Shown here: positions 11,089 to 52,101 of the stretch, piece after piece | Layout: each line of letters begins with the position of its first letter | Numbering within the stretch: position 1 is the first letter of the stretch | Translations under genes and position numbers: made by a program | The notes under the pieces: generated by a model | What the model saw: the letters and a program-made list of their open reading frames with translations, nothing else | What the model was told of the DNA's origin: nothing | Database searches by the model: none | NCBI GenBank assembly: GCA_964643995.1 | Contig: CAZXUJ010000001.1 | Location: 141,795 to 205,794 of the forward strand | Source: an uncultured Candidatus Saccharibacteria bacterium | Lineage (GTDB): Bacteria > Patescibacteriota > WWE3 > UBA101185 > UBA10185 | Direction of reading: 5' to 3' | Length of the DNA stretch: 64,000 bases

Positions 11089-12084
11089 CTACCATTCTAT
11101 TGAGCCCACCTGGTATTCGGTAACTCTGGTCTCAAAGAAGTTCTTTTCCTTCTTAAGATCCATCATTTCAGACATCCAGGGTAAGGTGTTTTTGGCATCA
11201 TATACCTTCTCAAGCCGAATGCTTTCTAGCCGTCGATCAGCAATATACTTTACGTAACCTTCAACCAAAGGTGCAGTTAGCCCTACAATACCTCTGGGCA
11301 TACAATCCTTGGCATACTTAATTTCAAGATCAACCGCGGTCTGGATGTTCTTTGAAATCGTTTGCTTAAACGAAGGCGTCCAGATTTCTGGGTTTTCTAT
11401 TGCAATAGTGTTGATTAAGTCACGACCAAAAGCCAGATGCACTGATTCATCACGTAAGATAAATTGAAACTGCTCACCTACACCTACCATTTTGTTTTGG
11501 CGCATCATCGAGAGCATCATCGCAAAACCGGCATAGAAAAACACACCCTCCATGATGATGTAAAATCCAACCAAATCGTGCACAAACTTCTGTATATTCT
11601 CTACGCCTTGGGTATTAAAATATGGGTCTGAGACCGATTTTGTCATATCAATAACGAAATCGTCTTTTTCTTTGATACTTGGGATGTTGTTGTACATCGT
11701 ATATACCTCATCTGGATCAAGGCCTAACGTATCACATGTATAAATAAATGTTTCGGTATGAACAGCCTCTTCATATGCCTGACGTAGAAGGTATTGACGA
11801 CATTCTGGGTTGGTAACGTGATTGTAAACTGCCAAAACTATATTATTTGCAGTAAGACTTTCGGCGGTGGAAAAAAATCCCATGTTACGCATAATTAACC
11901 TTTTTTCTTCATCGGTTAGCTTTCCTGGTGTTTTCCACTGCTCAACATCAATTTGCATATTAACTTCGTCTGGTACCCAGTTGTTATTTACACCGTTTTT
12001 ATAATGCTCGCGTGCCCAGTTATACCTAATGGGCAAAATTTTGTTTGGGTCAGTGGAAGTATTGTTTAATATAGATTTTTTCAT
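11089..12084 (-). CDS. nrdB: Class I ribonucleotide reductase, beta subunit.
   Basis: Ferritin-like R2 with di-iron ligand and Tyr-radical blocks (EEAVHTETF, FYAGFAMMLSMMRQNKM, RDESVHLAFG). Confidence 0.9.
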   Translation of the reverse strand: MKKSILNNTSTDPNKILPIRYNWAREHYKNGVNNNWVPDEVNMQIDVEQWKTPGKLTDEEKRLIMRNMGFFSTAESLTANNIVLAVYNHVTNPECRQYLLRQAYEEAVHTETFIYTCDTLGLDPDEVYTMYNNIPSIKEKDDFVIDMTKSVSDPYFNTQGVENIQKFVHDLVGFYIIMEGVFFYAGFAMMLSMMRQNKMVGVGEQFQFILRDESVHLAFGRDLINTIAIENPEIWTPSFKQTISKNIQTAVDLEIKYAKDCMPRGIVGLTAPLVEGYVKYIADRRLESIRLEKVYDAKNTLPWMSEMMDLKKEKNFFETRVTEYQVGSIEW

Positions 12085-12096
12085 ATATCTCCTTGT

Positions 12097-15072
12097 TTAC
12101 TGACACGACTCACACGTCGGATCATCCAGCCTACAGGCTTTAAATTCATACGAAGCACTATTGACACTTTCAAGAGTCGGAACACTAACTGGAGCCATGG
12201 CATAAGCGGCAACCTCTTCTATAGCCTCCTCAACCACTTCAGTAATCTCAATCGATGCAACATTAGAACCAACCATCGATGGAGCACTCGTCACAACTTC
12301 GACGTATGTATCTTCAACCTGTGAAGGAGTACCAACTGCAGAGGACACACCCTGACTTTCTAAAGAAACTGTACTCTTTTCGATTGAGGAAGCACCCAGA
12401 GTTCTCAGATAGTAAGTTGTCTTTAATCCAGATTTCCATGCATCCATATAGATTTCAGACAATACCTTCCCGCGAGTTGTATTTGTAAAAATATTTATGG
12501 ACTGACTCTGGTCCAACCACTTAGATCTATGAGCAGCATGTCTTACTACCCAGTGAGGATCAACATCAAATGCACCTTTATACTTCGAACGAATATGAAT
12601 AGGTATCTCAGATATACCTTGGATATTACCGTCATTGGCTTTTATGGAATCCAGCATAGCAGGTGACCACAAATCTATCTCCTTTAGGTCTTGTACGAGA
12701 TAATCATTAGATACGATAAACTCACCAAACATGTTAGATTTTACGTATAAGTTACTGTAAGGAGGCTCAATAGATGGCGTACAGCTTGCGAGATTTGAGA
12801 TTGATGCAGTAGGAGCTATTGCAAGACAATTGGAGTTTCTCATACCATATTTTTTAACATGTGAACGAACGGGTTCCCAGTCTAGTTTTCCACCATGAGG
12901 TATATGTGTCTTGACACCGCGTATTTCCTCCATATCTTCAAAGGTATCCTGCGGGAAAATATTTCGATCCCACTTAGAACCTTTGTACGAAGAATAAGCA
13001 CCGCGCTCTTTAGCCAACTCAGAAGAGGCTAATATTGCACAATATGAAACCAACTCCTGAACTTCGTCAGAGAGTTTAACAGCAACCTCACTATCAAAAC
13101 TTACACCACCCTTACTTAACATATCCTGAAAGCCCATAATACCTAGGCCAACAGGGCGATGTTTGAGGTTAGAGGTTGCTGTTTCCTTGACGGGATAGAA
13201 GTTTGCATCAATAACGTTATCGAGTATGCGCATCGCAACTCTGACAGAACTTTTCAGCGTATCTTTGTTTAAAACACCGTCATCTGAAGTATGCGCTGAA
13301 AGATTAATAGACCCAAGATTGCATACCGCAATTTCGTCCTTGGAAGTGTTCAAAGTTATTTCGGTGCATAAATTGGAACTATGAACAACACCAACATGAT
13401 CTTGTGGAGATCTAATATTGCAGGGGTCTTTAAACGTAAGCCAAGGATGCCCAGTTTCAAACAACATAGTGATTATTTTTCGCCAAAGATCGGCCGCCTT
13501 CATTTTCTTTATCAAAACCATATTCCCTGCATCAGCCTCTGCCTCATATTCAAGATACTTCTTGTCAAACGCTAAACCATACAAGTGGTGTAATTCGGGT
13601 GTTTCATCTGGGGAAAACAATGTCCAGTCAGCGTTTTCACTTACACGCTTCATAAACAAGTCTGGTATCCACAGGGCAGTGTTTATATTGTGCGTTCTTC
13701 GACGTTCGTCACCTACATTTCTTCGCAATTCTAGGAAAGACTCAATGTCGAAATGCCAAGGCTCAAGATAAACCACAGCGGCACCACGTTTACGACCACT
13801 ACGATTAATCGACGCGTTGGTAGAATCGCAAATCTTCAAAAATGGAACCACACCTTGACTTGGGACATTGGTACTTTTTATCATTGCCCCCGTTGCTCGT
13901 ATATTTGTCCAATCTAGTCCGATACCACCAGCATATTTTGCCAATTGAGCCTGATCACCGTAAGACTTAAATATATGATCTAGGTCATCTTCTACTGTCA
14001 TAAGGAAACAGGAACTCATCTGAGAGTGGACTAGCCCTGAATGATAAAGTGTAGGAGACGATGGTACATACAACAACTGCGACATGACAGTATAGAACTC
14101 TATAGCCTTTTCTTCTTTTTCGTCTTCAGTTAGAGAAAGTCCCATTGCAACACGCATCCAGAAATACTGTGGCGACTCCAAAATCTCTTGCGAAACACCT
14201 TTCAAGACGTATTTATCAAATAACATCTGTGCACTTGGATACATTAGTAAAAGGTCTCTTTCTGGAACCAGTGCCTCGCTAAGCTTTTTGAAGCTGAATT
14301 TCATAATTTTTGGATCAAGTCTACCTTGATCAACACCCATTTGAAGTTTTGCTTTGAAACTACTTCGGTAAACGTCTGCAAAATTCGAATCAGAAGTATC
14401 CATACCAAAAAGTCCCTTATATGTACTATCTAGTAGTGCTTTAGCCGCAATATGCGAGTACTCTTTGCCAAGTTCAATACGTGCAACCAATGACATTATC
14501 AAGGCTTTATCAATTTCCTGAGTAGCCATGCCATCAAACACACTTAACCTAAGTTCCTCGAGTATGTCATACATAACAGCTTTATTCGAAAAACCTTCAA
14601 AGTATCTGCGTAGTTTATTTTCAAGAACACTTATATCAAAAGCCGTAAAAGAGCCATCCCTCTTTTGAACCTTTATTCTAATACGTTGTAAATCTGACTC
14701 TGTTTTATTACGAAGTCTCTTATGCTGTTCACGATATAAAATATACGACTTGGAAGCATCAAAAAAACCCGCCTCGGAAATACCCCGCTCGGTTACATCT
14801 TGAATATCTTCAATATGGGGAATTCGATCCGTGAAAGAATCCTCCAACTCTTGAACAACTTTATTGGCTATCAATGGAGCATGATCTGCTGCGTTTTCCA
14901 CAGCAACAGAGTTAAGTGCTGCCAAAATAGCCTTTTCTATTTTTGCGCGGTCAAAATCTACTACATTACCGTCTCTCTTTACAACCTTCTTAATTTTCGA
15001 ATACTTAGCTTGAGCTGCAGAACAGTCTACAGCCACTACTAAGGACTCTTCTTTTTTCTTACCTTTTGGCAT
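12097..15072 (-). CDS. nrdA: Class I ribonucleotide reductase, alpha subunit, with two N-terminal ATP cones.
   Basis: Two VxKRDGxxxxFDxxKI ATP-cone repeats, a catalytic core (PSNLCTEI, CNLGSINL) and a C-terminal Cys pair (CESCQ). The ATG at 15072 (MPKGKKK) is preferred. The longest ORF begins with TTG at 15108. Confidence 0.9.
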   Translation of the reverse strand: MPKGKKKEESLVVAVDCSAAQAKYSKIKKVVKRDGNVVDFDRAKIEKAILAALNSVAVENAADHAPLIANKVVQELEDSFTDRIPHIEDIQDVTERGISEAGFFDASKSYILYREQHKRLRNKTESDLQRIRIKVQKRDGSFTAFDISVLENKLRRYFEGFSNKAVMYDILEELRLSVFDGMATQEIDKALIMSLVARIELGKEYSHIAAKALLDSTYKGLFGMDTSDSNFADVYRSSFKAKLQMGVDQGRLDPKIMKFSFKKLSEALVPERDLLLMYPSAQMLFDKYVLKGVSQEILESPQYFWMRVAMGLSLTEDEKEEKAIEFYTVMSQLLYVPSSPTLYHSGLVHSQMSSCFLMTVEDDLDHIFKSYGDQAQLAKYAGGIGLDWTNIRATGAMIKSTNVPSQGVVPFLKICDSTNASINRSGRKRGAAVVYLEPWHFDIESFLELRRNVGDERRRTHNINTALWIPDLFMKRVSENADWTLFSPDETPELHHLYGLAFDKKYLEYEAEADAGNMVLIKKMKAADLWRKIITMLFETGHPWLTFKDPCNIRSPQDHVGVVHSSNLCTEITLNTSKDEIAVCNLGSINLSAHTSDDGVLNKDTLKSSVRVAMRILDNVIDANFYPVKETATSNLKHRPVGLGIMGFQDMLSKGGVSFDSEVAVKLSDEVQELVSYCAILASSELAKERGAYSSYKGSKWDRNIFPQDTFEDMEEIRGVKTHIPHGGKLDWEPVRSHVKKYGMRNSNCLAIAPTASISNLASCTPSIEPPYSNLYVKSNMFGEFIVSNDYLVQDLKEIDLWSPAMLDSIKANDGNIQGISEIPIHIRSKYKGAFDVDPHWVVRHAAHRSKWLDQSQSINIFTNTTRGKVLSEIYMDAWKSGLKTTYYLRTLGASSIEKSTVSLESQGVSSAVGTPSQVEDTYVEVVTSAPSMVGSNVASIEITEVVEEAIEEVAAYAMAPVSVPTLESVNSASYEFKACRLDDPTCESCQ

Positions 15073-15337
15073 AAGCAGGTGTGCTCTACTAACTAGTAGT
15101 GTTGACAAGAAAAGCCAAGACTTCTAGCTAATTAAGAGTCTTTACGCCGGTGATAAATGAATCACCAGCAATCCACCAGAGGCGGATAATAAATTTTTAC
15201 TTGGGCAGAATTTAAGTCTGTGGCTAATAGTTACATATTGAAAATGCAGGAACCACCAATACAGGTTTTGATTATCTGTTTTTTAACTGTTATATGGGGG
15301 TCGAAAAAAGAAAAATGTTGATTTAATGTTAATCGAA

Positions 15338-26047: not shown

Positions 26048-27934
26048 ATGAGAATCTTTATTAAATTTTTGTTTTTTTCAATAGCACTATCGATATTTAT
26101 GCATCGGGGGTATGCCCAAAACCAAGCACCAACACCATTTACATCCCTTTACAATGTAACCTATGAAGTTGACCTAAAGGGAAATACACAGGTATCCCAA
26201 GATATATCGATAGTTAATCGGCACAAAGATGTCATTGCAACAACGTACTCGTTGCTCGTGAAAAAACTCAACATATATGATCTGGTTATTGATTCAGACC
26301 AGAACATTGAGCTGGAAGAAAAAAAAGAAAACGAACAGACAGAGATTAATTTAACTTTCAAAAATGCAGTTATAGGAGAAGGTCGGGCAAACGAGTTTAA
26401 AATTAAATATAAAACCCCTGACATAGTATCAAGAGTAGGCGAAGTGTGGAATATAAATATACCTCGTGCAAATTTACTAGAAGACACTAAAGAATACGGC
26501 GTCACCTTGCTAGTACCCAAGGAATTTGGCCCAGAAATATTCATTACACCTAGCCCAATAATAAAAGAAGAAACCGACACACACTACAAATACAATTTTA
26601 ATGAAAATACCCTGCGCGCAACTGGCATCTCGGCATCTTATGGGCAATATCAAGTAATAAACTTCAAACTTGACTATGAAATCTCAAATGATTCCTTTCT
26701 GGAAACCGATCGCGAAATAGCGCTTCCTCCCGATTTAACAAATGTTCAACAGGTTTTGTTTAAATCAATTGAACCTTCACCAAATAGCATTTATACCGAT
26801 CAAGACAACAATATCCTAGCAGAATACAAACTTGACGGAAAGGAAACAAAAAACATTACTGTGATAGGTACTGCGAGAATACTTAGTAGACAGATAAAAC
26901 CCGACCTCGGGGCAACTGCAAAAGACATCCCTAACGAATTAAAAAACAAATACACTGGGGCAAATGAGTTTTGGAATGCAGACGATATAGAAATAAAGAA
27001 AACCGCTGAAGAACTTTATGACGCGAATGAGTCTGTTTCCAAAAACGCTCAGAGAGCTTATCAATTTACAGTATCTAAACTCAAATACGACTTTAGTATT
27101 CTGAAACAGGAATCGGTAAACCGCAAGGGAGGAGCTATGGCACTAATGGCCACAGACAGCATTGGATGCATGGAATTCACTGACCTTTTCATCTCACTAA
27201 CCCGGGCAATGGGTATCCCTGCCAGAGAGTTGGATGGCTATGCAATCACAGAAGAAAACTCAAGCACAACACCACTTTCCATAAATTTAAGAGGTGGCGA
27301 TTTGTTACACGCATGGGCGGAATTTTATGATCCAGCTTTTGGATGGGTACCTGTTGATCCCACCTGGGGTAGCACTTCTGGAATTGATTACTTCACTAAA
27401 CTCGATACCAATCATTTAGTTTTCGCCGTAAAGGGAATAAGCCCATATTTACCAATGCCTGCAGGATCATATAAAAGAATCGAAGGTCAAAAACAGGCTC
27501 ATGTTGAGGTAGCAAGTAATAATAATACTGATGAGTTCATTCCATTAATAAAAATCTATAGATCATATGATTTTAGTTTAGTGCACCTCTTAAAAAATGA
27601 GAAACGATATTATCTTAAAAATGAAGGTAACATAGCCGTTTACTATGATGGACAACAAATAATTCCAACACAACACATTCCTATAAACATAAAAAACGAA
27701 AAATTCTCATTACTTATAAAGGACACTCTTGGGAAAGAATATATTTTAGATCCTGAGGTTTCAGATGAGAAACTAGATAACCCTATTTTAGCTTATGGCT
27801 CTTTAGTTTTCTCAGTGCTTCTCCTGTATATGATCTTTTATTTTTTAGTAATTCGCTTACAGGTCCTGAAAAGATTAGCTCTCCTCCTAAAGAACCACCC
27901 TCAGGTCCCAGATCAACAACCCAATCAGCATTAG
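26048..27934 (+). CDS. Secreted, C-terminally membrane-anchored transglutaminase-like (Cys-His-Asp) enzyme.
   Basis: Signal peptide, then a transglutaminase core with Cys (GCMEFTDLF), His (HAWAEFY) and Asp (VPVDPTWG). A C-terminal TM anchor is encoded in the overlap with the uvrA 3' end. Confidence 0.7.
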   Translation: MRIFIKFLFFSIALSIFMHRGYAQNQAPTPFTSLYNVTYEVDLKGNTQVSQDISIVNRHKDVIATTYSLLVKKLNIYDLVIDSDQNIELEEKKENEQTEINLTFKNAVIGEGRANEFKIKYKTPDIVSRVGEVWNINIPRANLLEDTKEYGVTLLVPKEFGPEIFITPSPIIKEETDTHYKYNFNENTLRATGISASYGQYQVINFKLDYEISNDSFLETDREIALPPDLTNVQQVLFKSIEPSPNSIYTDQDNNILAEYKLDGKETKNITVIGTARILSRQIKPDLGATAKDIPNELKNKYTGANEFWNADDIEIKKTAEELYDANESVSKNAQRAYQFTVSKLKYDFSILKQESVNRKGGAMALMATDSIGCMEFTDLFISLTRAMGIPARELDGYAITEENSSTTPLSINLRGGDLLHAWAEFYDPAFGWVPVDPTWGSTSGIDYFTKLDTNHLVFAVKGISPYLPMPAGSYKRIEGQKQAHVEVASNNNTDEFIPLIKIYRSYDFSLVHLLKNEKRYYLKNEGNIAVYYDGQQIIPTQHIPINIKNEKFSLLIKDTLGKEYILDPEVSDEKLDNPILAYGSLVFSVLLLYMIFYFLVIRLQVLKRLALLLKNHPQVPDQQPNQH

Positions 27935-30755
27935 CAATTACATCCAAATTGTGCTCTATAACAAGGATAGTATGCCCCTTAGACTGCAACCTCTTAATAA
28001 TAGCGATTAAACGCTCTAGATCCTTAAAGTGCAATCCGGTAGTTGGCTCGTCTAAAATGTACAAAGTACTTCCACGAGAATTCTTTGCTAGTTCAGACGC
28101 CAATTTAACGCGCTGCGCCTCACCACCCGATAGCGTTGGAGCAGGCTGCCCGAGTCTGATATAGCCCAGCCCTACGTCGTATATCGTTTGAAGCTTACTG
28201 TGTATCGCAGGTATGTTTTCAAAAAATTCCAAAGATTCCTCAACAGTCATCTGCAAAACATCACTAATATTTTTACCCTTATAGTAAATTTCTAACGCCT
28301 CACGATTATACCTTTTACCTTCACATACCTCACAATTTACGTATACATCAGGCATAAACTGCATCTCAATTTTAATTTGACCCTCCCCTGCACAAGCCTC
28401 ACAACGACCACCTTTAACATTAAAACTAAATCGGCCCGCCTTGTACCCTCTGATTCGAGACTCTTGAGTTTTGGAAAATAGATCCCTAATGGCATCAAAA
28501 CACTTGGTGTATGTTGCAGGGTTAGACTTTGGTGTTCGCCCAATCGGCGTCTGGTCAATGGCAATAATCTTATCTATATTATCTAGCCCATCAATGTGCT
28601 TGAAAGGCTCAGGTCGGCTTTCGATTTTCATACCAAAATACTGCCTGAGAGCGGTATATAAAGTATCCATAATTAATGTAGACTTACCTGAACCGGAAAC
28701 TCCGGTGACACAAATGAATTTGCCTAGAGGGAGTTCGACTGTTACGTTTTTCAAATTACGTCCTGTAGCCCCCATTATTTTTAAGGTCTTGTCTGAGTGC
28801 TTCATCTCCACCGAATTAGTATTCTTAGCTTTTGACGAGTCTAATTTACCAACAACTTTTTTACCAGACAAATAATCACCAGTAATAGAATTTTTGTCAT
28901 TCATAACCTCTTGTGGTGTACCAAAAGACATTACTCTACCGCCATGCTCACCCGCACCAGGACCAAAATCAAAAAGGTAATCACTCTCAAGCATTGTATC
29001 CATGTCATGTTCAACGACCACAACTGTGTTGCCAAGATCTCTTAGGTGTTTTAGGGTTTTTATCAATTTCCCCTGGTCTCTTTGATGTAAGCCAATGGAA
29101 GGTTCATCTAATACGTAAAGAACTCCCGATAAACCAGAACCAATCTGAGAAGCTAATCTTATTCTTTGAGCCTCACCGCCAGATAGATGAGATGCAGACC
29201 GACTCAAACTTAAATAACTTAAACCTACATCTAACAAAAACTTTATCCGGTAAGTGATTTCCTTCATTATCGGAATAGAAATTTTTTCTTCGCGCTCATT
29301 GAAAGTCTTTTTCACTTCTTGGATCCAATCCCAGAACTGTTCAATAGACAGCTCGCTGATTTCCCAAATATTCTTGTTATTGATAACAACAGACAAAGAG
29401 TCCTCTTTTAAACGAGAACCTAAACATTTAGGACAAGATTCTTTCACCATAAATTTTTCTATCTCAGCACGAATATAGTCTGATTTTGTTTCTTTATAGC
29501 GACGTAACATATGAGGTATTACACCTTCAAATTTGGCGTTGAAGGTGCCACTATTACCTTCCCGTGTTTGATACTTAACCCTAAACTTTGTCATGCTTTC
29601 TGGGCCATATAATAATAGGCTGAATATCTCTTCTGGGAGTTCTCCAATTGGAGTGTCGAGAGAAAAACCATATTCTTTTGAAACGGAAGTAACTACCATA
29701 GACATCCAAGAATTGTGTTCAAACAACCTCATCCATGGAATAATACCTCCTTCTGCTATCGAAAGATTCTTATTGACGATCAAGTCCTTATCTACATTGA
29801 GTTGGGTTCCCAAACCATCACATGCTGGACAGGCACCATGGGGCGAATTAAACGAGAAGTTACGAGGTTCAATATCAGGCAATGAAATGTTACAAAACGG
29901 GCACGCAAAGTTTTCTGAGAATAAATGGTCTTCTAGATCTGTAGGAACATCTTTAAAATCAAAGTCTTTATCTTTAACAATACTCACCACCACATTACCG
30001 TCACTTAACCTTAAAGCGGCCTCTATTGTCTGATAAGTAGATGATTCAAGTTCCTTTTTATCATTGGGATCTGCGAGTTTAGCTTTGCTGACGACTAACC
30101 TACTAAGTACTGCTTCAATCGTATGCTTATTTGTCTTGATAAGATCAAAATCAGTGTTGAGATTTGTAATCTGCCCATCAATACGCGCACGGGTAATCCC
30201 CTGTTTTCGCAAATTTTCAAAAAGTTTAGAATATTCACCTTTTCGATCACGTACAATTGGTGAAAGGATCATAAGTCTCACACCGCGCTCATTTTTAAAA
30301 TCAGGTGACTCAGAAGAAAGTTGAAAAATCCTCGAGACTATCTGATCTACACTTTGTCGACTTATCTCCCTACCACATTGAGAACAGTGAGGATGCCCAA
30401 CACGCGCATAAAGTAAGCGAAGAAAGTCATATACTTCAGTTATGGTACCTACCGTTGATCTAGGGTTTCTAGAGGCTGTCTTTTGATCAATTGCTATAGC
30501 TGGAGATAATCCCTCAATACTATCAACATCAGGCTTGCCCATAACACCTAAAAACTGACGAGCATATGCCGATAAACTTTCAACATAGCGACGCTGTCCT
30601 TCAGCATATATGGTATCCATAGCTAAAGAAGATTTCCCAGAACCAGAAACACCCGTGAAAACGACGAATTTATATTTAGGAATTTCCAAATCAATGTTTT
30701 TAAGGTTGTGCTCACGAGCACCGCGAACAATAATGTGGTCGATCGAGGAAGTCAT
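27783..30755 (-). CDS. uvrA: Excinuclease ABC subunit A.
   Basis: Two ABC ATPase modules ([29 protein letters not shown] twice) and zinc-finger Cys clusters. 990 aa. Confidence 0.9.
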
Positions 30756-30768
30756 AATTTTACAAGTT

Positions 30769-30793
30769 TACGGCATTTATTCGGGTTTGACAA
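30769..30793 (-). promoter_or_regulatory. uvrA promoter with embedded TACGG-N6-TTCGG direct repeat (candidate LexA operator).
   Basis: On the minus strand: TTGTCA, a 17-nt spacer, then TAAACT, 9 nt upstream of the ATG. The repeat occupies the spacer. Confidence 0.35.
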
Positions 30794-33595: not shown

Positions 33596-35671
33596 TTATT
33601 CGAGATATTTCTTTACCTTTTTTATTTCATCTCGAATCACAGCAGCTCTTTCAAAGTTTAGCATATCAGCTTCATATGTCATTGCTTTTTCCATTTTTGC
33701 AATTTCTTTCTTGATCTCTGGTGGGGGCAACTGGGAGTAGTCCACATCTACAGCATACCTAAGCCTCTTTGTTTTATCCAACTGCTGTTCAATCAACTCA
33801 TCGACAAGTTTCTCTCGCATTGGTTTATGAATACTCTTCGGCTCTATATTGTGCTGTTTATTGTAGTTGGATTGGATTTCACGTCGGCGATCAACTTCAG
33901 CAATTGCACGTTTCATACTTCCGGTAATGTTGTCAGCGTACATGATAACTTCACCATCCATATGTCTGGCAGCTCTACCCATAGTTTGGATCAAAGCCGA
34001 TTCGGAACGTAGAAAACCCTCCTTGTCAGCGTCTAATATAGCCACCAAAGAAACCTCAGGCAAATCTAAACCTTCACGTAAAAGATTGATACCTACGAGA
34101 ACATCATAATTACCCCGTCTAAGATCGTCCAAGATTGTTGTTCTTTCAAGGGTATCAATGTCCGAATGTAAGTAAGTAACTTTTACACCTTTTTCCAACA
34201 AATATGATGAGAGCTCCTCAGACATTCTTTTAGTTAAAGTTGTAACAAGCACACGTTCTTTCTTTGAGACCTTATCTAAAATCCTAGCTAACAGATCTTC
34301 GACCTGATTATTTGTAGGAAGCAGTGTGACTTTTGGATCAGTAATACCTGTTGGTCTTATCAATTGCTCTGCTACATGCCCCAAAGAACGTTCGAGTTCC
34401 CATACGTTAGGGGTAGCGCTTACATAAACGACTTGGTTAACCTTAGAGATAAATTCATCAAAATTTAGGGGACGATTATCATAAGCTGATGGAAGTCTAA
34501 AACCAAAATCAATCAAGTTTTTTTTGCGAGCTTGGTCACCATTATACATGCCACGAACCTGAGGAATACTGATATGAGACTCATCTACAACCAGTAGATA
34601 ATCCTTAGGAAAAAAATCCAGCAACGAATATGGAGCATCACCAGGTTTACGCCCATCAAAGTAACGGGAATAATTCTCAATTCCTTTGCAGTACCCAATT
34701 TCTTTAATCATTTCTAGATCATACATAGTTTTTTGCTTTAAACGATAAGCTTCCACAACTTTACCTTCGGTTTCCAATTCTTTAACTCGTAATGAAAGGT
34801 CCTTTTCTATATTTGCAAGAGATTCATCACGACGTTCTTCTGCGGTGACGTAATGTTTAGCAGGATAAATAACTGCCCAACCACCTTCCTTTTGGCGATG
34901 CTCGGTAAAATTTTGTTCGTCTTGGGTGAGAATTCTTGCACTTCCCCCACGACGCTCCGTAGGTAACATATCACGAAGTATGGGCTGTCCAGTTAGTGGA
35001 TCAAAATGAGTTATATCCTCAATTTGATTATCGAAAAGTTCAATGCGTACAGCATAATCCGTATAGGCAGGATATATATCAACCACATCTCCTTGAACAC
35101 GATAATCGCCACGTTTAAAATCAAACTCGTTTCGATCATAGTAGAGTTGAGAAAATCTCTTTAGCAAGTCAGACTTACGTATCTTCATGCCCTTTTTGAG
35201 TTCAATGGCTACTTTTGAATATTCAGCAGGAGAACCAAGGTTATAAATACAAGATACAGAAGAAACTATAATTACATCTTTACGTGTCATCAAAGAAGTT
35301 GTAGCCGAAAGTCTAAGTTTATCTATTTCTTCATTTATATCAGCATCTTTTTCAATATAGGTATCAGTTTGTGGAACATAACTTTCAGGTTGGTAATAAT
35401 CATAATAGCTAACAAAATACTCAACAGCATTCTCAGGAAAAAACTCTTTTAATTCTTGATAATTTTGCGCAGCTAGCGTTTTGTTATGGCATAAAAACAA
35501 AGTTGGACGTTGCGTGTTTTGAATAAGGTTAGCAATCGAGAAGGTTTTACCACTACCTGTAACACCCAAAAGTACCTGATCCTTCACTCCTGAAAGAACG
35601 TTCGAGGTTAGTTGTTCAATAGCCTTCGGCTGATCCCCCGTAGGCTTATAATCTGACTTCAAATTAAACAT
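33596..35671 (-). CDS. uvrB: Excinuclease ABC subunit B.
   Basis: Helicase motifs (GVTGSGKT, DESH), a beta-hairpin region and a C-terminal UVR domain. 691 aa. Confidence 0.9.
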   Translation of the reverse strand: MFNLKSDYKPTGDQPKAIEQLTSNVLSGVKDQVLLGVTGSGKTFSIANLIQNTQRPTLFLCHNKTLAAQNYQELKEFFPENAVEYFVSYYDYYQPESYVPQTDTYIEKDADINEEIDKLRLSATTSLMTRKDVIIVSSVSCIYNLGSPAEYSKVAIELKKGMKIRKSDLLKRFSQLYYDRNEFDFKRGDYRVQGDVVDIYPAYTDYAVRIELFDNQIEDITHFDPLTGQPILRDMLPTERRGGSARILTQDEQNFTEHRQKEGGWAVIYPAKHYVTAEERRDESLANIEKDLSLRVKELETEGKVVEAYRLKQKTMYDLEMIKEIGYCKGIENYSRYFDGRKPGDAPYSLLDFFPKDYLLVVDESHISIPQVRGMYNGDQARKKNLIDFGFRLPSAYDNRPLNFDEFISKVNQVVYVSATPNVWELERSLGHVAEQLIRPTGITDPKVTLLPTNNQVEDLLARILDKVSKKERVLVTTLTKRMSEELSSYLLEKGVKVTYLHSDIDTLERTTILDDLRRGNYDVLVGINLLREGLDLPEVSLVAILDADKEGFLRSESALIQTMGRAARHMDGEVIMYADNITGSMKRAIAEVDRRREIQSNYNKQHNIEPKSIHKPMREKLVDELIEQQLDKTKRLRYAVDVDYSQLPPPEIKKEIAKMEKAMTYEADMLNFERAAVIRDEIKKVKKYLE

Positions 35672-35690
35672 TTCTACATTTTACCACAGC

Positions 35691-35711
35691 CTTTGGGTTT
35701 TATTTGGTAAA
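35691..35711 (-). promoter_or_regulatory. uvrB promoter region with TTTGG-N6-TTTGG direct repeat (candidate LexA operator, degenerate).
   Basis: The repeat shows the same 11-bp periodicity. On the minus strand, TAAAAT lies 7 nt upstream of the uvrB ATG. Confidence 0.3.
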
Positions 35712-35822: not shown

Positions 35823-36281
35823 ATGAAACACATACTCTGGTTTTTAATTCTATTGGTTTTGATTGGGTGCTCTGGCAAAGCAAATGAAGTTGTGCAACAA
35901 GCTTCACCGGAGACCACCCAAGAGCAAAAAACCGCCCCTGAGGTTCCCAGTGAAGTAATGGTTTCCCAAGAAGCCGAGACAGCAGTAACGCTGTCACCGG
36001 AAACTCTTGAGTTACTGCGCAGACGAAAGATAGAAATTTACAGCGCGCCTAAAAACGCGGATGGAACCCACCCATATTTTTATATTCATCAATATATCGG
36101 TGGTGACGAGAGGTTTCTCGTACGAGGGACATATCAAGGGAAACCGTTCGGGGTCGTAATGTCCAAATACGACGAAAGGTTAGCGTTCACGTCGCAGGGC
36201 GTTGCGTTGTGCATCACAGAAGTTAAGGAGGATTTTCCCACGTGGGATTGCTTCGAGACTTCGTTGGAGTCATTAGATTAG
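35823..36281 (+). CDS. Lipoprotein, hypothetical.
   Basis: Signal peptide with a lipobox, LIGC|SG. Confidence 0.5.
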   Translation: MKHILWFLILLVLIGCSGKANEVVQQASPETTQEQKTAPEVPSEVMVSQEAETAVTLSPETLELLRRRKIEIYSAPKNADGTHPYFYIHQYIGGDERFLVRGTYQGKPFGVVMSKYDERLAFTSQGVALCITEVKEDFPTWDCFETSLESLD

Positions 36282-36340: not shown

Positions 36341-36382
36341 GACACCTCTACTTTTTTGGCTCTTTTTTTTGCTCACAAAACC

Positions 36383-36411
36383 TTGACATCTTCGGTACTT
36401 ATTCGGTACTA
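36383..36411 (+). promoter_or_regulatory. lexA promoter. The -35 TTGACA is followed by the direct repeat TTCGGTACTTA/TTCGGTACT (candidate LexA operator).
   Basis: TTCGG at 36391 and 36402 with an 11-bp period. The repeat overlaps the spacer and -10 region (GTACTA/TACTAT). Confidence 0.4.
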
Positions 36412-36474
36412 TAAAAATACGAAATAAACCCAAATAAATATAAATTTAAGTGCAATATGCACTGGAGAAAAATA

Positions 36475-37104
36475 ATGAGCCCTATAACCTTGTATAAAAG
36501 ACAAAAACAAATTTTAGATTATATTTCGCAATATATACAAATGAATGGTACTTCACCTACCTTGCAGGAAATTGCAGCAGCTATGGATCTATCGTCGCTC
36601 GCAACTGTACATGAACATTTACAGGCTCTAGAAAAAAAAGGCGTAATTAGAAGATTCGATGGCGCTGTAAGAGGTATTGAGCTTCTTGATCCAAGTATTA
36701 ATGCCTCGCCTACCAGTATTGAGCTTCCATTAATTGGCTATATTGCCGCAGGTGAGCCTATTGAGGCTATTGAAAACGATTTAGAAACCGTAGCTGTATC
36801 ATCAGATTTAGTTTCAAAAGTAAATCGATGCTATGTTCTTATGGTCAGAGGTGACTCCATGATCAAAGAAGGTATATTCGACGGAGATTATGTAGTAATT
36901 CAAAAGCAGGATACTGCAAATAACGGGGACATTGTTGTAGCCCTGATAGACAAGCAATTCGCAACACTAAAAAGTTTCTATAAAGAGAGTAATGGAAAAA
37001 TCAGATTACAACCAGCTAATGACGAGATGGAACCATTGATAGTAGATGCTAGAGACATAACTGTGCAGGGAAAAGTTACTGGAATAATAAGAAAGTATAC
37101 TTAG
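36475..37104 (+). CDS. lexA: SOS repressor LexA.
   Basis: N-terminal winged-helix domain plus an S24 peptidase domain (VRGDSM...TLKSF). The start was chosen at MSPITLYKR. The longest ORF starts at 36457. Confidence 0.85.
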   Translation: MSPITLYKRQKQILDYISQYIQMNGTSPTLQEIAAAMDLSSLATVHEHLQALEKKGVIRRFDGAVRGIELLDPSINASPTSIELPLIGYIAAGEPIEAIENDLETVAVSSDLVSKVNRCYVLMVRGDSMIKEGIFDGDYVVIQKQDTANNGDIVVALIDKQFATLKSFYKESNGKIRLQPANDEMEPLIVDARDITVQGKVTGIIRKYT

Positions 37105-44565: not shown

Positions 44566-44854
44566 TAGTAACTATATCGACGCGCCATTGTTGGGACGGA
44601 TACTTAATGAGATAGCTGTCAATCGCTCTTGAGAGAGCACGTTGTTTATAGTAATGGAGGGCACAGCTAACATCACCAAAGTTTTTATTGCTTCTGAATT
44701 TGACTTCAATAAACACTAACCATATAGAGTCCCTCATCACTAGGTCAAGTTCCCCCCAATGTGTTGTCCAATTACGAACAACCAAAACATATCCAAGGCG
44801 TTCGAGATATTTACAAGCGAGTTTTTCACCGAAATTACCACGAACTTTGTTCAT
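44489..44854 (-). CDS. yraN: YraN family (UPF0102) endonuclease.
   Basis: GEKLACKYLERLGY...ELDLV...FIEVK motif set. The 3' end overlaps the LCP gene by 77 bp. Confidence 0.7.
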   Translation of the reverse strand: MNKVRGNFGEKLACKYLERLGYVLVVRNWTTHWGELDLVMRDSIWLVFIEVKFRSNKNFGDVSCALHYYKQRALSRAIDSYLIKYPSQQWRVDIVTITAQVSRYQVQHFPHFVLQSHKSYY

Positions 44855-48005: not shown

Positions 48006-48410
48006 CTACTCACTCAAAGTTTCTGTAACTTTACCCATATACATATCCCAAGAGTTTTTATCCCAAAGCTCAATATGATCTCCGACACCAATCACAGCTG
48101 TTTTGTTTTCCAACATGGCATACTCCTTTAAATGAGGAGGAACAACAAATCGGCCTTGAGCATCAATGCTGGCTTCACTAGCTGAAGTGTACAAATAACG
48201 CTCTAGATCACTGCGCTTCAAATTACCTGGCAAATTTTCAACTTGCTTCTGAGCCTTTTCCGCCCAGTCGTCCTTATCGTAAACCAAGACACACTTTTCA
48301 AAACCTTTGGAGAGAATGATTTCGCCATGACTTATCTGATCCCGCATCTTGCTGGGCAAAGCAATTCTGGAACCTTCGGTAATGTTTGGATTGTATTCGC
48401 CCAAAAACAT
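48006..48410 (-). CDS. mraZ: Transcriptional regulator MraZ.
   Basis: Two DXXXR-type MraZ repeats. The start was chosen at MFLGEYNP by analogy to E. coli MFRG. The longest ORF starts 30 nt upstream. Confidence 0.85.
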   Translation of the reverse strand: MFLGEYNPNITEGSRIALPSKMRDQISHGEIILSKGFEKCVLVYDKDDWAEKAQKQVENLPGNLKRSDLERYLYTSASEASIDAQGRFVVPPHLKEYAMLENKTAVIGVGDHIELWDKNSWDMYMGKVTETLSE

Positions 48411-48421
48411 TTTCATAAAGC

Positions 48422-48451
48422 CTTTCATGTGATTCACCATTCCTCACCATT
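48422..48451 (-). promoter_or_regulatory. Direct repeats ATGGTGA-N3-ATGGTGA (10-bp period) plus a third degenerate copy immediately upstream of mraZ. Candidate MraZ box array.
   Basis: On the minus strand: cAAATGGTGAggaATGGTGAatcacATGAAAG. MraZ operators elsewhere are GTG-rich direct repeats with 10-bp periodicity. Confidence 0.35.
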
Positions 48452-48543
48452 TGATATCTATCTTGCTCCATTAGGTACTTAACGTCAACACAAATATTAC
48501 CCGAAGAATATCAAGTAAAAGTCGTATCTGGTATCATTTACAA

Positions 48544-50541: not shown

Positions 50542-50576
50542 TTGACACACAATCAAACTTCGGGTAATATTCGGGT
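50542..50576 (+). promoter_or_regulatory. Promoter TTGACA-N17-TAATAT with embedded TTCGGGTAATA/TTCGGGTATG direct repeat. The predicted transcription start is at the ATG of the small ORF (leaderless).
   Basis: TTGACA at 50542-47 and TAATAT at 50565-70. TTCGG at 50559 and 50570 with an 11-bp period. ATG at 50577. Confidence 0.4.
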
Positions 50577-50864
50577 ATGTACAGCGTAATTAACGAACCT
50601 GTAGAAGTATTTGCTAATTTTAACAAAAAAGGAGCTGAACCAATAGGCTTCACATGGAAGAACAAAGACTACAACATTACCTCAATAAACTTTAAACACT
50701 ATTCAAAAGACGGTGATAAAAAAGTCTACCAGTTTGCTGTTACTGCAAATCAAGAAACGTACAAGTTAATGTTTGACCCTACAACACTGGTGTGGCGATT
50801 AGAAGAGGTGTATTTAGAAAATGACTTCAAAGAAGTAAAAACTCTAAATGACAGCTACAACTAA
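50577..50864 (+). CDS. Hypothetical 95-aa protein, apparently leaderless and co-transcribed with dinB.
   Basis: ORF with normal codon usage. It starts exactly at the predicted transcription start and overlaps or abuts the dinB start. Confidence 0.4.
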   Translation: MYSVINEPVEVFANFNKKGAEPIGFTWKNKDYNITSINFKHYSKDGDKKVYQFAVTANQETYKLMFDPTTLVWRLEEVYLENDFKEVKTLNDSYN

Positions 50865-52101
50865 AGATTTAACTCATTATTTGGACTTTAATAAAATCAT
50901 AATGCATATAGACTATGACTCTTTCTTTGCATCCGTAGAACAACAAGTTAATCCAAAGCTGCGTGGCAAACCAATTGCTGTTGGAGGAAGTTCTGTAAGA
51001 AAGGGAATAGTTTGTGCAGCGTCGAGAGAAGCAAAAAAGCTTGGAGTTAAAACAGGAATGCCCTTGTTTAAGGCACGAGAACTATGCCCTCAACTGATTG
51101 CTATAAAAAGCGATGGAACAAAATACAGCTATATTCAAAAGGAAAGTTTAAAAATATTTAATAAATATACGGATCTGATTGAACCTTTTAGCATTGACGA
51201 GGCTTTTCTGGATGTCACGAAAACTGTGAAATTCTTCAAAAACCCTGAGCACATAGTAACTTGTATAAAAAACGAAGTAAAAGAGATGTTTGGCGAGTAT
51301 ATAACTTGCTCGGTTGGAGTAGGCCCTAATAAGTTATTAGCAAAGCTTGTTTCAGACTTAAAAAAGCCAAATGGGTTAGTAATAGTAACTGAGAAAAATC
51401 TCCAAAAAATACTTACTGGGGTTGAGCTGGAAAGTTTTTGTGGGATTGGGCATAGATTACAGGAAAGATTGAATAATATGGGAATTCATACTGTAAAAGA
51501 ATTACAAGAGACTACCCTAGCTGAACTGTATCGCGAATTCGGGAATGTTTCAGGGTCATTTCTTAAGGCAGCAAGCTTCGGCGTAGGAGTAGGAGAGGTC
51601 AAATCAGCTGAGTACGAAAGACCGGTTAAATCCATTAGTCATCAGCACACGCTAATGTATAACACTAAAAACTCAAGAATAATTCTTGATAATTTAAGAA
51701 GATTAACAGAAATGGTGGCAAAAAGACTTCGTAATCATAGTGTTGTTGGTAAAACTATACATTTATCTTTACGTGATGGAAAAAAGCAATGGTATAGGTT
51801 CAGAACAACATTACCTAGACATACCTCCTCGGGAATGGAAATATATAAAAGAGTTGAAAAATTGTTTTGGGAGGTCAAATGGGACAAAGAAACTCGCTTG
51901 GTGGGCATAGGCATATCAAACCTAATAGATGAAAAAACTTTAATGCGCCCGCTATTCTTAGAAGATCAGAGGGACGCAACGATAAACAAAGCCATAGATA
52001 AAATTAATGATAGATGGGGAAAATTCTCAATTATACCAGCTAATACCTTAAGGGCAGCTAATACAAAAACAAAAATAAGCAGCTTTTTACGACATGAGTA
52101 A
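50848..52101 (+). CDS. dinB: DNA polymerase IV (Y-family).
   Basis: HIDYDSFFASVE catalytic block and GIG...L HhH little-finger region. The start is at 50848 (MTATTK), or possibly 50905 (MHIDYD). Confidence 0.85.
   Translation: MTATTKDLTHYLDFNKIIMHIDYDSFFASVEQQVNPKLRGKPIAVGGSSVRKGIVCAASREAKKLGVKTGMPLFKARELCPQLIAIKSDGTKYSYIQKESLKIFNKYTDLIEPFSIDEAFLDVTKTVKFFKNPEHIVTCIKNEVKEMFGEYITCSVGVGPNKLLAKLVSDLKKPNGLVIVTEKNLQKILTGVELESFCGIGHRLQERLNNMGIHTVKELQETTLAELYREFGNVSGSFLKAASFGVGVGEVKSAEYERPVKSISHQHTLMYNTKNSRIILDNLRRLTEMVAKRLRNHSVVGKTIHLSLRDGKKQWYRFRTTLPRHTSSGMEIYKRVEKLFWEVKWDKETRLVGIGISNLIDEKTLMRPLFLEDQRDATINKAIDKINDRWGKFSIIPANTLRAANTKTKISSFLRHE

Follow-up and report, generated by a model that had tools for sequence, protein, structure and literature searches.

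The promoters of lexA, uvrA, uvrB and the orf95-dinB operon, all within a 64-kb stretch of a Patescibacteria (candidate division WWE3) genome (hereafter, the window), carry a common direct-repeat element that is, with high probability, an SOS box, i.e., the operator of a canonical, self-cleaving LexA repressor. The element has the consensus TTCGGGTwwTA-TTCGG and the core T[TA]YGG-N6-TTYGG, and since its two same-sense half-sites start 11 bp apart, they face the same side of the helix. It is present in the lexA promoter itself, is conserved in canonical SOS promoters, overlaps core promoter elements, and occurs in a genome that encodes a complete LexA. Its placement differs by gene: the spacer in lexA, the spacer and -10 in uvrA, the -35 position in uvrB, and the -10 and transcription start in orf95-dinB. 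Since these are core promoter elements, bound LexA would exclude RNA polymerase. A first-pass annotation of the window had proposed a direct-repeat, lineage-specific LexA operator shared by these four promoters. Its four quoted sites are indeed present, with coordinates right to within 1 nt, the gene identities were upheld by Pfam and NCBIfam, and its reading of the element is supported by conservation in related genomes, by enrichment, by control gene starts and by the negative result at distant dinB genes.

Scanning the window for T[TA]YGG-N6-TTYGG returned five exact sites, four of them on the core promoters of lexA, uvrA, uvrB and the orf95-dinB operon; the fifth, inside murG, is a chance match. 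With the stricter TTYGG-N6-TTYGG, four exact matches were observed against 0.68 expected (a count of four was reached in 1 of 100 shuffles), three of which fall in SOS promoters and one within murG, and relaxing the first half-site to T[TA]YGG added the uvrA site alone. A position weight matrix (PWM) built from the lexA promoters of other genomes gave lexA (24.6 bits), uvrB (19.5 bits) and dinB (14.4 bits) as the top three matches in the window. Three matches thus scored above 14 bits where 0.25 were expected, and the maximum among 200 simulated sequences was two. The uvrA site was not recovered in the window by this lexA-trained matrix because the matrix penalizes TACGG and the GGGT flank, a penalty that arises because promoter hexamers impose those features on the lexA training sites. 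When a pooled PWM (consensus TTCGGGTTTTATTCGG) was used, the six best matches in the window all lay in promoters, namely the dinB operon (23.3 bits), uvrB (21.2 bits), uvrA (20.3 bits), lexA operator 1 (18.1 bits), a minus-strand site upstream of mraZ at 48490-48505 (16.3 bits) and lexA operator 2 (13.2 bits), a ranking that is partly circular since the window's own sites were in the training set. In each of the five promoter classes, the half-sites repeat in the same sense. Matches inside genes at 14352, 19467, 37145, 51538, 60047 and 60614 were dismissed as chance. A motif-like TTCGTGGTAATTTCGG at 44829-44844 (minus strand) occupies codons 4-10 of a UPF0102/YraN gene, and the corresponding PWM match (44827-44845, in the first codons of that gene) was set aside as coding sequence rather than an operator.

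Other repair and replication genes were considered as well. The first-pass annotation had stated that uvrC and recO carry no upstream copy of the element, and the window scans bore this out. Ribonucleotide reductase is reportedly a member of the published Patescibacteria SOS regulon; in the window, the class I enzyme is encoded at 11089-15108 by nrdA, which includes an ATP-cone, and nrdB, and no SOS-box-like site was found in the 230 nt upstream of nrdAB. For nrdA, translation may begin elsewhere than at the listed TTG (15108). The window's uvrC, recO, nrdAB and ftsZ are outside the minimal SOS regulon, and recA was not found in the window or in any retrieved locus.

The lexA gene (36475-37104, plus strand) encodes a 209-aa protein with LexA DNA-binding and S24 peptidase domains, and its start at 36475 is backed by homologues. 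Its core promoter (36383-36412, plus strand) consists of a -35 TTGACA (36383-36388), an 18-nt spacer and a -10 TACTAT (36407-36412), with 10 of 12 matches in the sigma-70 scan. The same scan agreed with the promoter placements in the first-pass annotation, i.e., TTGACA-18-TACTAT for lexA, TTGTCA-17-TAAACT for uvrA and TTGACA-17-TAATAT for the dinB operon. Operator 1 (36391-36406, plus strand; TTCGGtacttaTTCGG), an 11-nt direct repeat, fills the lexA spacer, and a repeat search of 36370-36450 found an 11-nt tandem unit in this promoter and no inverted repeat. A second operator (36419-36434; TTTGGgtttatTTCGt on the minus strand) has one mismatch and lies in inverted orientation over the expected transcription start, spanning about +1 to +16 of the lexA transcript. 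The four lexA half-sites start at intervals of 11, 18 and 11 bp, the leading pair having the opposite sense to the trailing pair.

Alignment of the lexA promoters of related genomes showed how closely this arrangement is kept. The string TTGACA-tc-TTCGG-N6-TTCGG-TAnTAT served as a gap-free anchor in 71 of 81 promoters (80 loci plus the window), and in the anchored alignment each half-site base carried 1.4-2.1 bits vs. about 0.2-0.7 in the N6. Most of the unanchored promoters have the repeat beside a variant -35 (e.g., L004, L071, L073-L075, L078 and L079). An inverted second copy (plus strand TACCRAA...CRAA) occupies columns 35-52, at a fixed distance, in most genomes with a lexA leader, and several lexA genes with short or absent leaders are without it. 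A palindromic reading of the window's lexA site, GTAC-N7-GTAC, was rejected since its bases are not conserved in other genomes.

Several further features of this intergenic region were noted. In L073-L075 and L078, whose LexA proteins show 60-64% identity, the direct repeat is kept in the spacer (TTGATT-TTCGGGTTTTCTTTGT-TATAAT) and an extra palindrome, ACTTGTA-N5/6-TACAAGT, lies downstream of the repeat, about 35-70 nt upstream of lexA; it may be a site for a second regulator or an RNA hairpin. The lexA leaders of L037, L052 and L054 (operator to start codon) are about 100-150 nt long, GC-rich and contain self-complementary stretches (e.g., ttgcggcc...ccgcaaag); elsewhere the leaders are short. 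In the window, a 152-aa ORF (35823-36281) lies between uvrB and lexA, which are usually directly divergent in related loci. This ORF had no Pfam or NCBIfam match and no tblastn match in the 80 related loci, which leaves two readings, an insertion specific to the lineage or no gene at all. In some genomes (e.g., L011 and L015), the divergent lexA and uvrB promoters appear to use one common operator.

At uvrA (27783-30755, minus strand; identified by Pfam), the core promoter TTGTCA-17-TAAACT lies at 30765-30793 on the minus strand and the operator at 30769-30784 on the plus strand (TACGGcatttaTTCGG), antisense to the gene. The first-pass annotation had placed this site in the 17-nt spacer, which is mostly right; it is not wholly inside, however, since it also covers the first 2 nt of the -10, the TA of TACGG being the first two -10 bases. 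Orthologous uvrA promoters have the architecture TTCACA-AACCCGAAnnnnTACCG-TAnAAT, with the element antisense and its first half-site overlapping the -10, so that TACGG and the -10 hexamer have their TA in common. In a second class of uvrA promoter, the same half-site is placed on the -35 (ACCCAAATAAAACCCGTAGACA). The uvrB operator (35692-35707, plus strand; TTTGGgttttaTTTGG) is likewise antisense to its gene (33596-35671, minus strand; identified by Pfam) and covers the -35 position, with an extended -10, read by eye, 8 nt downstream of it (TGgTAAAAT, 35678-35686, minus strand). Orthologues show TACCAAAyAAAACCCAAA-N6-TGnTAnAAT, with the extended -10 again read by eye, so that the operator occupies the usual -35 place of an extended -10 promoter.

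The fourth promoter (50542-50570, plus strand; TTGACA-17-TAATAT) precedes orf95 (50577-50864, plus strand), which encodes a conserved 95-aa small protein and opens the dinB operon. Its operator (50559-50574, plus strand; TTCGGgtaataTTCGG) spans the end of the spacer, the entire -10 and the transcription start. The end of orf95 overlaps by 17 nt the start of dinB (50848-52101, plus strand), identified by Pfam and NCBIfam as the gene for the Y-family DNA polymerase IV (DinB/IMS polymerase). Orthologues of orf95 precede dinB in five WWE3 loci (L081, L083, L161, L162 and L164), and orf95-like ORFs were also seen near distant dinB genes (L104, L137 and L144). A family search with orf95 gave only sub-threshold matches to Pfam DUF6504 (E 0.0013-0.24); the protein may be an accessory factor of the dinB polymerase.

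The distance from the -10 to the start codon was short in these genes, i.e., 6 nt for orf95 (50565-50579), 6 nt for uvrB (35669-35686) and 9 nt for uvrA (30753-30770), and was similarly short in several orthologous lexA genes. Therefore, the SOS genes of this lineage appear to give leaderless or near-leaderless transcripts without a Shine-Dalgarno sequence.

LexA homologues at 73-100% identity were all from Patescibacteria, mostly candidate division WWE3. A genome scan based on the LexA alignment provided 80 loci, most of them WWE3 and a few labeled Microgenomates, Amesbacteria or Nomurabacteria, several of these taxonomic labels being loose. Since the loci are phylogenetically related and were retrieved partly by means of the peptide ATVHEHLQ, which is the recognition helix itself and restricts the set to a single LexA clade, the conservation counts that follow do not represent independent events. 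Scoring a promoter as conserved when at least 9 of the 10 specified bases matched, we found the element upstream of lexA in 74 of 80 cases (40 exact; 130 nt searched), upstream of uvrA in 40 of 47 (38 exact; 65 nt searched; 39 of the 40 antisense to the gene) and upstream of uvrB in 63 of 71 (36 exact; 65 nt searched; 62 of the 63 antisense). All seven dinB-operon promoters examined (the window, L081, L083 and L161-L164) had it, five exactly and two with one mismatch, in a search that took in 130 nt upstream and the first 10 nt of the gene. Within each class, operator orientation and position relative to the promoter were fixed, and the 11-bp phasing predicted to persist in orthologous promoters was kept in dozens of relatives at lexA, uvrA, uvrB and the dinB operon.

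Backgrounds were markedly lower. None of 625 control gene starts from the same loci had an exact site and 5.8% reached 9 of 10 or better, while among random 130-mers the corresponding figures were 0.4% and 4.9%, which refutes an equal frequency of the motif in random DNA. The density of exact sites was 5.05 per kb in lexA, uvrA and uvrB promoters vs. 0.023 per kb in the other 1.27 Mb, an enrichment of ~220-fold, and almost all of the 29 exact sites in that remainder lay within long ORFs or at contig ends. A metagenome scan for dinB gave 80 matches, 76 of them at 41% identity or less; usable orthologues came only from L081 and L083, and the rest served as a negative control. The dinB genes at 35-41% identity had no exact site within 500 nt upstream, where upstream sequence existed. 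Therefore, the promoter counts and backgrounds indicate that the element is specific to these genes and to this lineage.

The encoded LexA is, as predicted from its domains and residues, a canonical repressor in which a DNA-binding domain, cleavage site and Ser/Lys dyad are all present. Pfam and NCBIfam identified LexA, as they did UvrA, UvrB and the Y-family polymerase; the protein contains PF01726 and PF00717 and matched TIGR00498 at 207 bits against a cut-off of 111. It could be aligned end to end with E. coli and T. maritima LexA, and the alignment takes in the AAG cleavage region as well as the serine of GDSM and the lysine of TLK. Its N-terminal domain aligned without gaps to that of E. 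coli LexA, where SPNAAEEHL is replaced by SLATVHEHL, so that N41, A42 and E44, which we take to be the base-contacting positions in structure 3JSO, become A, T and H. The recognition-helix residues were invariant in 18 homologues at 72-96% identity, an invariance due in part to selection because the search peptide ATVHEHLQ is the helix. A helix unlike that of E. coli yet invariant within the clade fits a conserved motif of a non-E. coli type.

Other readings of the element were weighed against these observations. Since the binding protein is assigned from sequence, the element could in principle be the operator of another transcription factor that co-regulates DNA-repair genes and lexA, with LexA binding elsewhere; the candidate mraZ site just upstream of a TGG[AT][GT] array with 10-11 nt spacing also implies that other repeat-binding regulators are active in this genome. 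However, nearly all genomes examined have the element in their lexA promoter, the WWE3 lexA promoters show no alternative conserved element, lexA, uvrA, uvrB and dinB are the classic SOS core, and a direct-repeat motif has already been ascribed to Patescibacteria LexA in the literature (PMC7739468), and we therefore regard this alternative as highly improbable. A chance, compositional or basal promoter feature that serves no protein as an operator is less probable still, to the point of being negligible. The genome is AT-rich, murG contains one exact match by chance, and ~5-6% of random or control stretches of 130-140 nt reach 9 of 10, but such a feature is at odds with the 220-fold enrichment, with the lack of any exact site at the 625 control starts, and with the transfer of the lexA-trained PWM to other promoters in the window (three matches above 14 bits vs. 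0.25 expected). Furthermore, the orientation of the element and its register relative to the -35 and -10 vary by gene, unlike any basal promoter element.

A further alternative accepts LexA as the binding protein but supposes that LexA reads half-sites one at a time, or in inverted pairs formed between neighboring operators, so that promoters with two half-sites would hold partial sites. The lexA promoter lends itself to such an arrangement, since its half-sites start 11, 18 and 11 bp apart in opposite-sense pairs, the two inner ones can make up a perfect TTCGGTA-N9-TACCGAA palindrome (e.g., in L010), and the solved LexA-DNA complex, 3JSO, uses inverted half-sites. However, no inverted partner accompanies the single direct repeat of uvrA, uvrB, the dinB operon or mraZ, and these sites are as well conserved as those of lexA, and several lexA genes with short or no leaders do without the second operator. 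In addition, the inner half-sites are ~18 bp apart from center to center, compared to ~12 bp in CTGT-N8-ACAG and 8 bp in GAAC-N4-GTTC. We therefore give this alternative very little credence and retain the direct repeat as the LexA operator.

As to how such an operator could work, we infer that one LexA dimer would occupy each direct repeat in a head-to-tail manner permitted by the flexible interdomain linker, with the two winged-helix domains a helical turn apart along one face of the DNA. Two dimers are suggested by the four half-sites at lexA; that the other promoters have one repeat each speaks for the direct repeat as the binding unit. Bound in this way, LexA would presumably stand in the way of RNA polymerase at the spacer, -10 or -35 of the promoter; following DNA damage, RecA-stimulated self-cleavage of LexA would free the promoters. 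The second, inverted operator over the lexA transcription start may make autoregulation tighter. The solved E. coli complex with its inverted half-sites (3JSO) leaves unexplained how a two-fold symmetric dimer sits on a direct repeat.

The mraZ promoter of the dcw cluster probably bears a further operator. The candidate (48490-48505, minus strand; TTCGGgtaataTTTGT) has one mismatch and lies 1 nt upstream of a -35 TTGACG (48488-48483). The gene, in its 134-aa form, is at 48006-48410 on the minus strand, with rsmH, ftsL and ftsI downstream at 47999-44914. A corresponding arrangement, TTCGGG-N5-TTTGT-n-TTGACA, is kept in the mraZ promoters of L026, L042 and L165-L170, which amount to about six independent lineages since L026/L042 and L165/L166 are near-duplicates. 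These orthologous sites scored 10-18 bits with the pooled PWM, within the range of true sites, and the spacer GTTTTA is common to the mraZ-site, uvrA and uvrB operators. Between the mraZ -35 and start codon, the boxes ATGGAG, ATGGTGA and ATGGTGA occur in 21- and 10-nt steps (48434-48471, minus strand), and upstream of mraZ in relatives (L026 and L165-L170), four to five TGG[AT][GT] boxes recur every 10-11 nt; these are probably MraZ autoregulatory sites. The upstream element can also be read as a degenerate extension of the TGG[AT][GT] array, and for this reason we hold its assignment to LexA at a lower level: on balance, we favor a LexA operator at mraZ by a modest degree. That LexA directly controls the promoter of mraZ-rsmH-ftsL-ftsI, so that the SOS response acts on division through the MraZ repressor rather than through an inhibitor of the SulA/YneA type, is a more tentative proposal and somewhat doubtful. 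We found no report of LexA control of mraZ, in a comparison with literature other than the 2017 Patescibacteria regulon.

Some of the motif-bearing records have GW2011 and RAAC2 names (L003, L037, L059 and L071), and the genomes so named were presumably public before 2017. In two later papers from the same laboratory, the study of the Patescibacteria SOS response by Sanchez-Osuna, Barbe and Erill (2017; Environ Microbiol 19:3465; pmid 28618189) is listed among reports of distinct LexA-binding motifs (PMC8565304) and is cited among lineages in which LexA evolved direct-repeat recognition (PMC7739468). On the account of these later papers, that motif and ours come from the same superphylum, involve the same regulator and are both direct repeats. 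A full-text literature search found no text giving the Patescibacteria LexA consensus. We consider it likely that the WWE3 consensus is identical to the published motif; should the two logos prove different, the WWE3 element is to be seen as a variant of the published one. The element therefore very probably rediscovers a published motif, the direct-repeat LexA motif of Patescibacteria having been known since 2017.

Comparison with better-known LexA systems places the element more precisely. The E. coli CTGT-N8-ACAG box belongs to the same family and follows the same logic, with an autoregulated lexA, operators that overlap promoters and tandem lexA operators, but it is palindromic, has another half-site, and is read by a LexA with N41, A42 and E44 where WWE3 has A, T and H. 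The GAAC-N4-GTTC box of Firmicutes and Actinobacteria has the extended consensus CGAAC-N4-GTTCG, which is also the box of B. subtilis, whose LexA helix reads STVHGHL. The half-site GTTCG of this Gram-positive (Cheo) box has TTCG in common with the WWE3 element, and the WWE3 helix SLATVHEHL is far closer to that of B. subtilis than to the E. coli SPNAAEEHL. However, the Gram-positive box is a palindrome with 4-bp spacing, whereas the WWE3 half-sites are same-sense and 11 bp apart. Since both the TTCG half-site and the helix are Gram-positive-like, the change lay in the arrangement of the half-sites. The alphaproteobacterial SOS box, GTTC-N7-GTTC, is a direct repeat (PMC8565304) with a start-to-start period of 11 bp and a TTC core, both identical to those of WWE3. 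The first-pass annotation had held that the WWE3 half-site differs from this box, and this is true of the G before TTC, found in the WWE3 lexA column in 7 of 53 (first half-site) and 5 of 53 (second half-site), but does not extend to the shared core and period. Conservation in WWE3 runs in the 3' direction (TTCGG), unlike the alphaproteobacterial GTTC, and the LexA is from a different lineage. The EMSA-validated LexA motif of Balneolaeota, TTACACATATTTTWTACATA (PMC7739468), is a direct repeat like that of WWE3, but has an unrelated half-site and belongs to another phylum.

A reading of the sequence by itself thus rediscovered the SOS operator of an uncultured lineage with a reduced genome. It defines a minimal WWE3 SOS regulon of lexA, uvrA, uvrB and orf95-dinB, to which mraZ probably belongs as the fifth. 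Direct-repeat operators bear on how a two-fold symmetric repressor reads same-sense half-sites, and are relevant to the evolution of LexA motifs, in this case through rearrangement of a conserved TTCG-type half-site. Since the motif class was already published for the superphylum, the added value is in the details: the inverted second lexA operator, the half-site variants shaped by promoter hexamers (TACGG at uvrA), and the candidate link between LexA and mraZ. If that link is true, the SOS response of these bacteria would reach cell division through the MraZ repressor.
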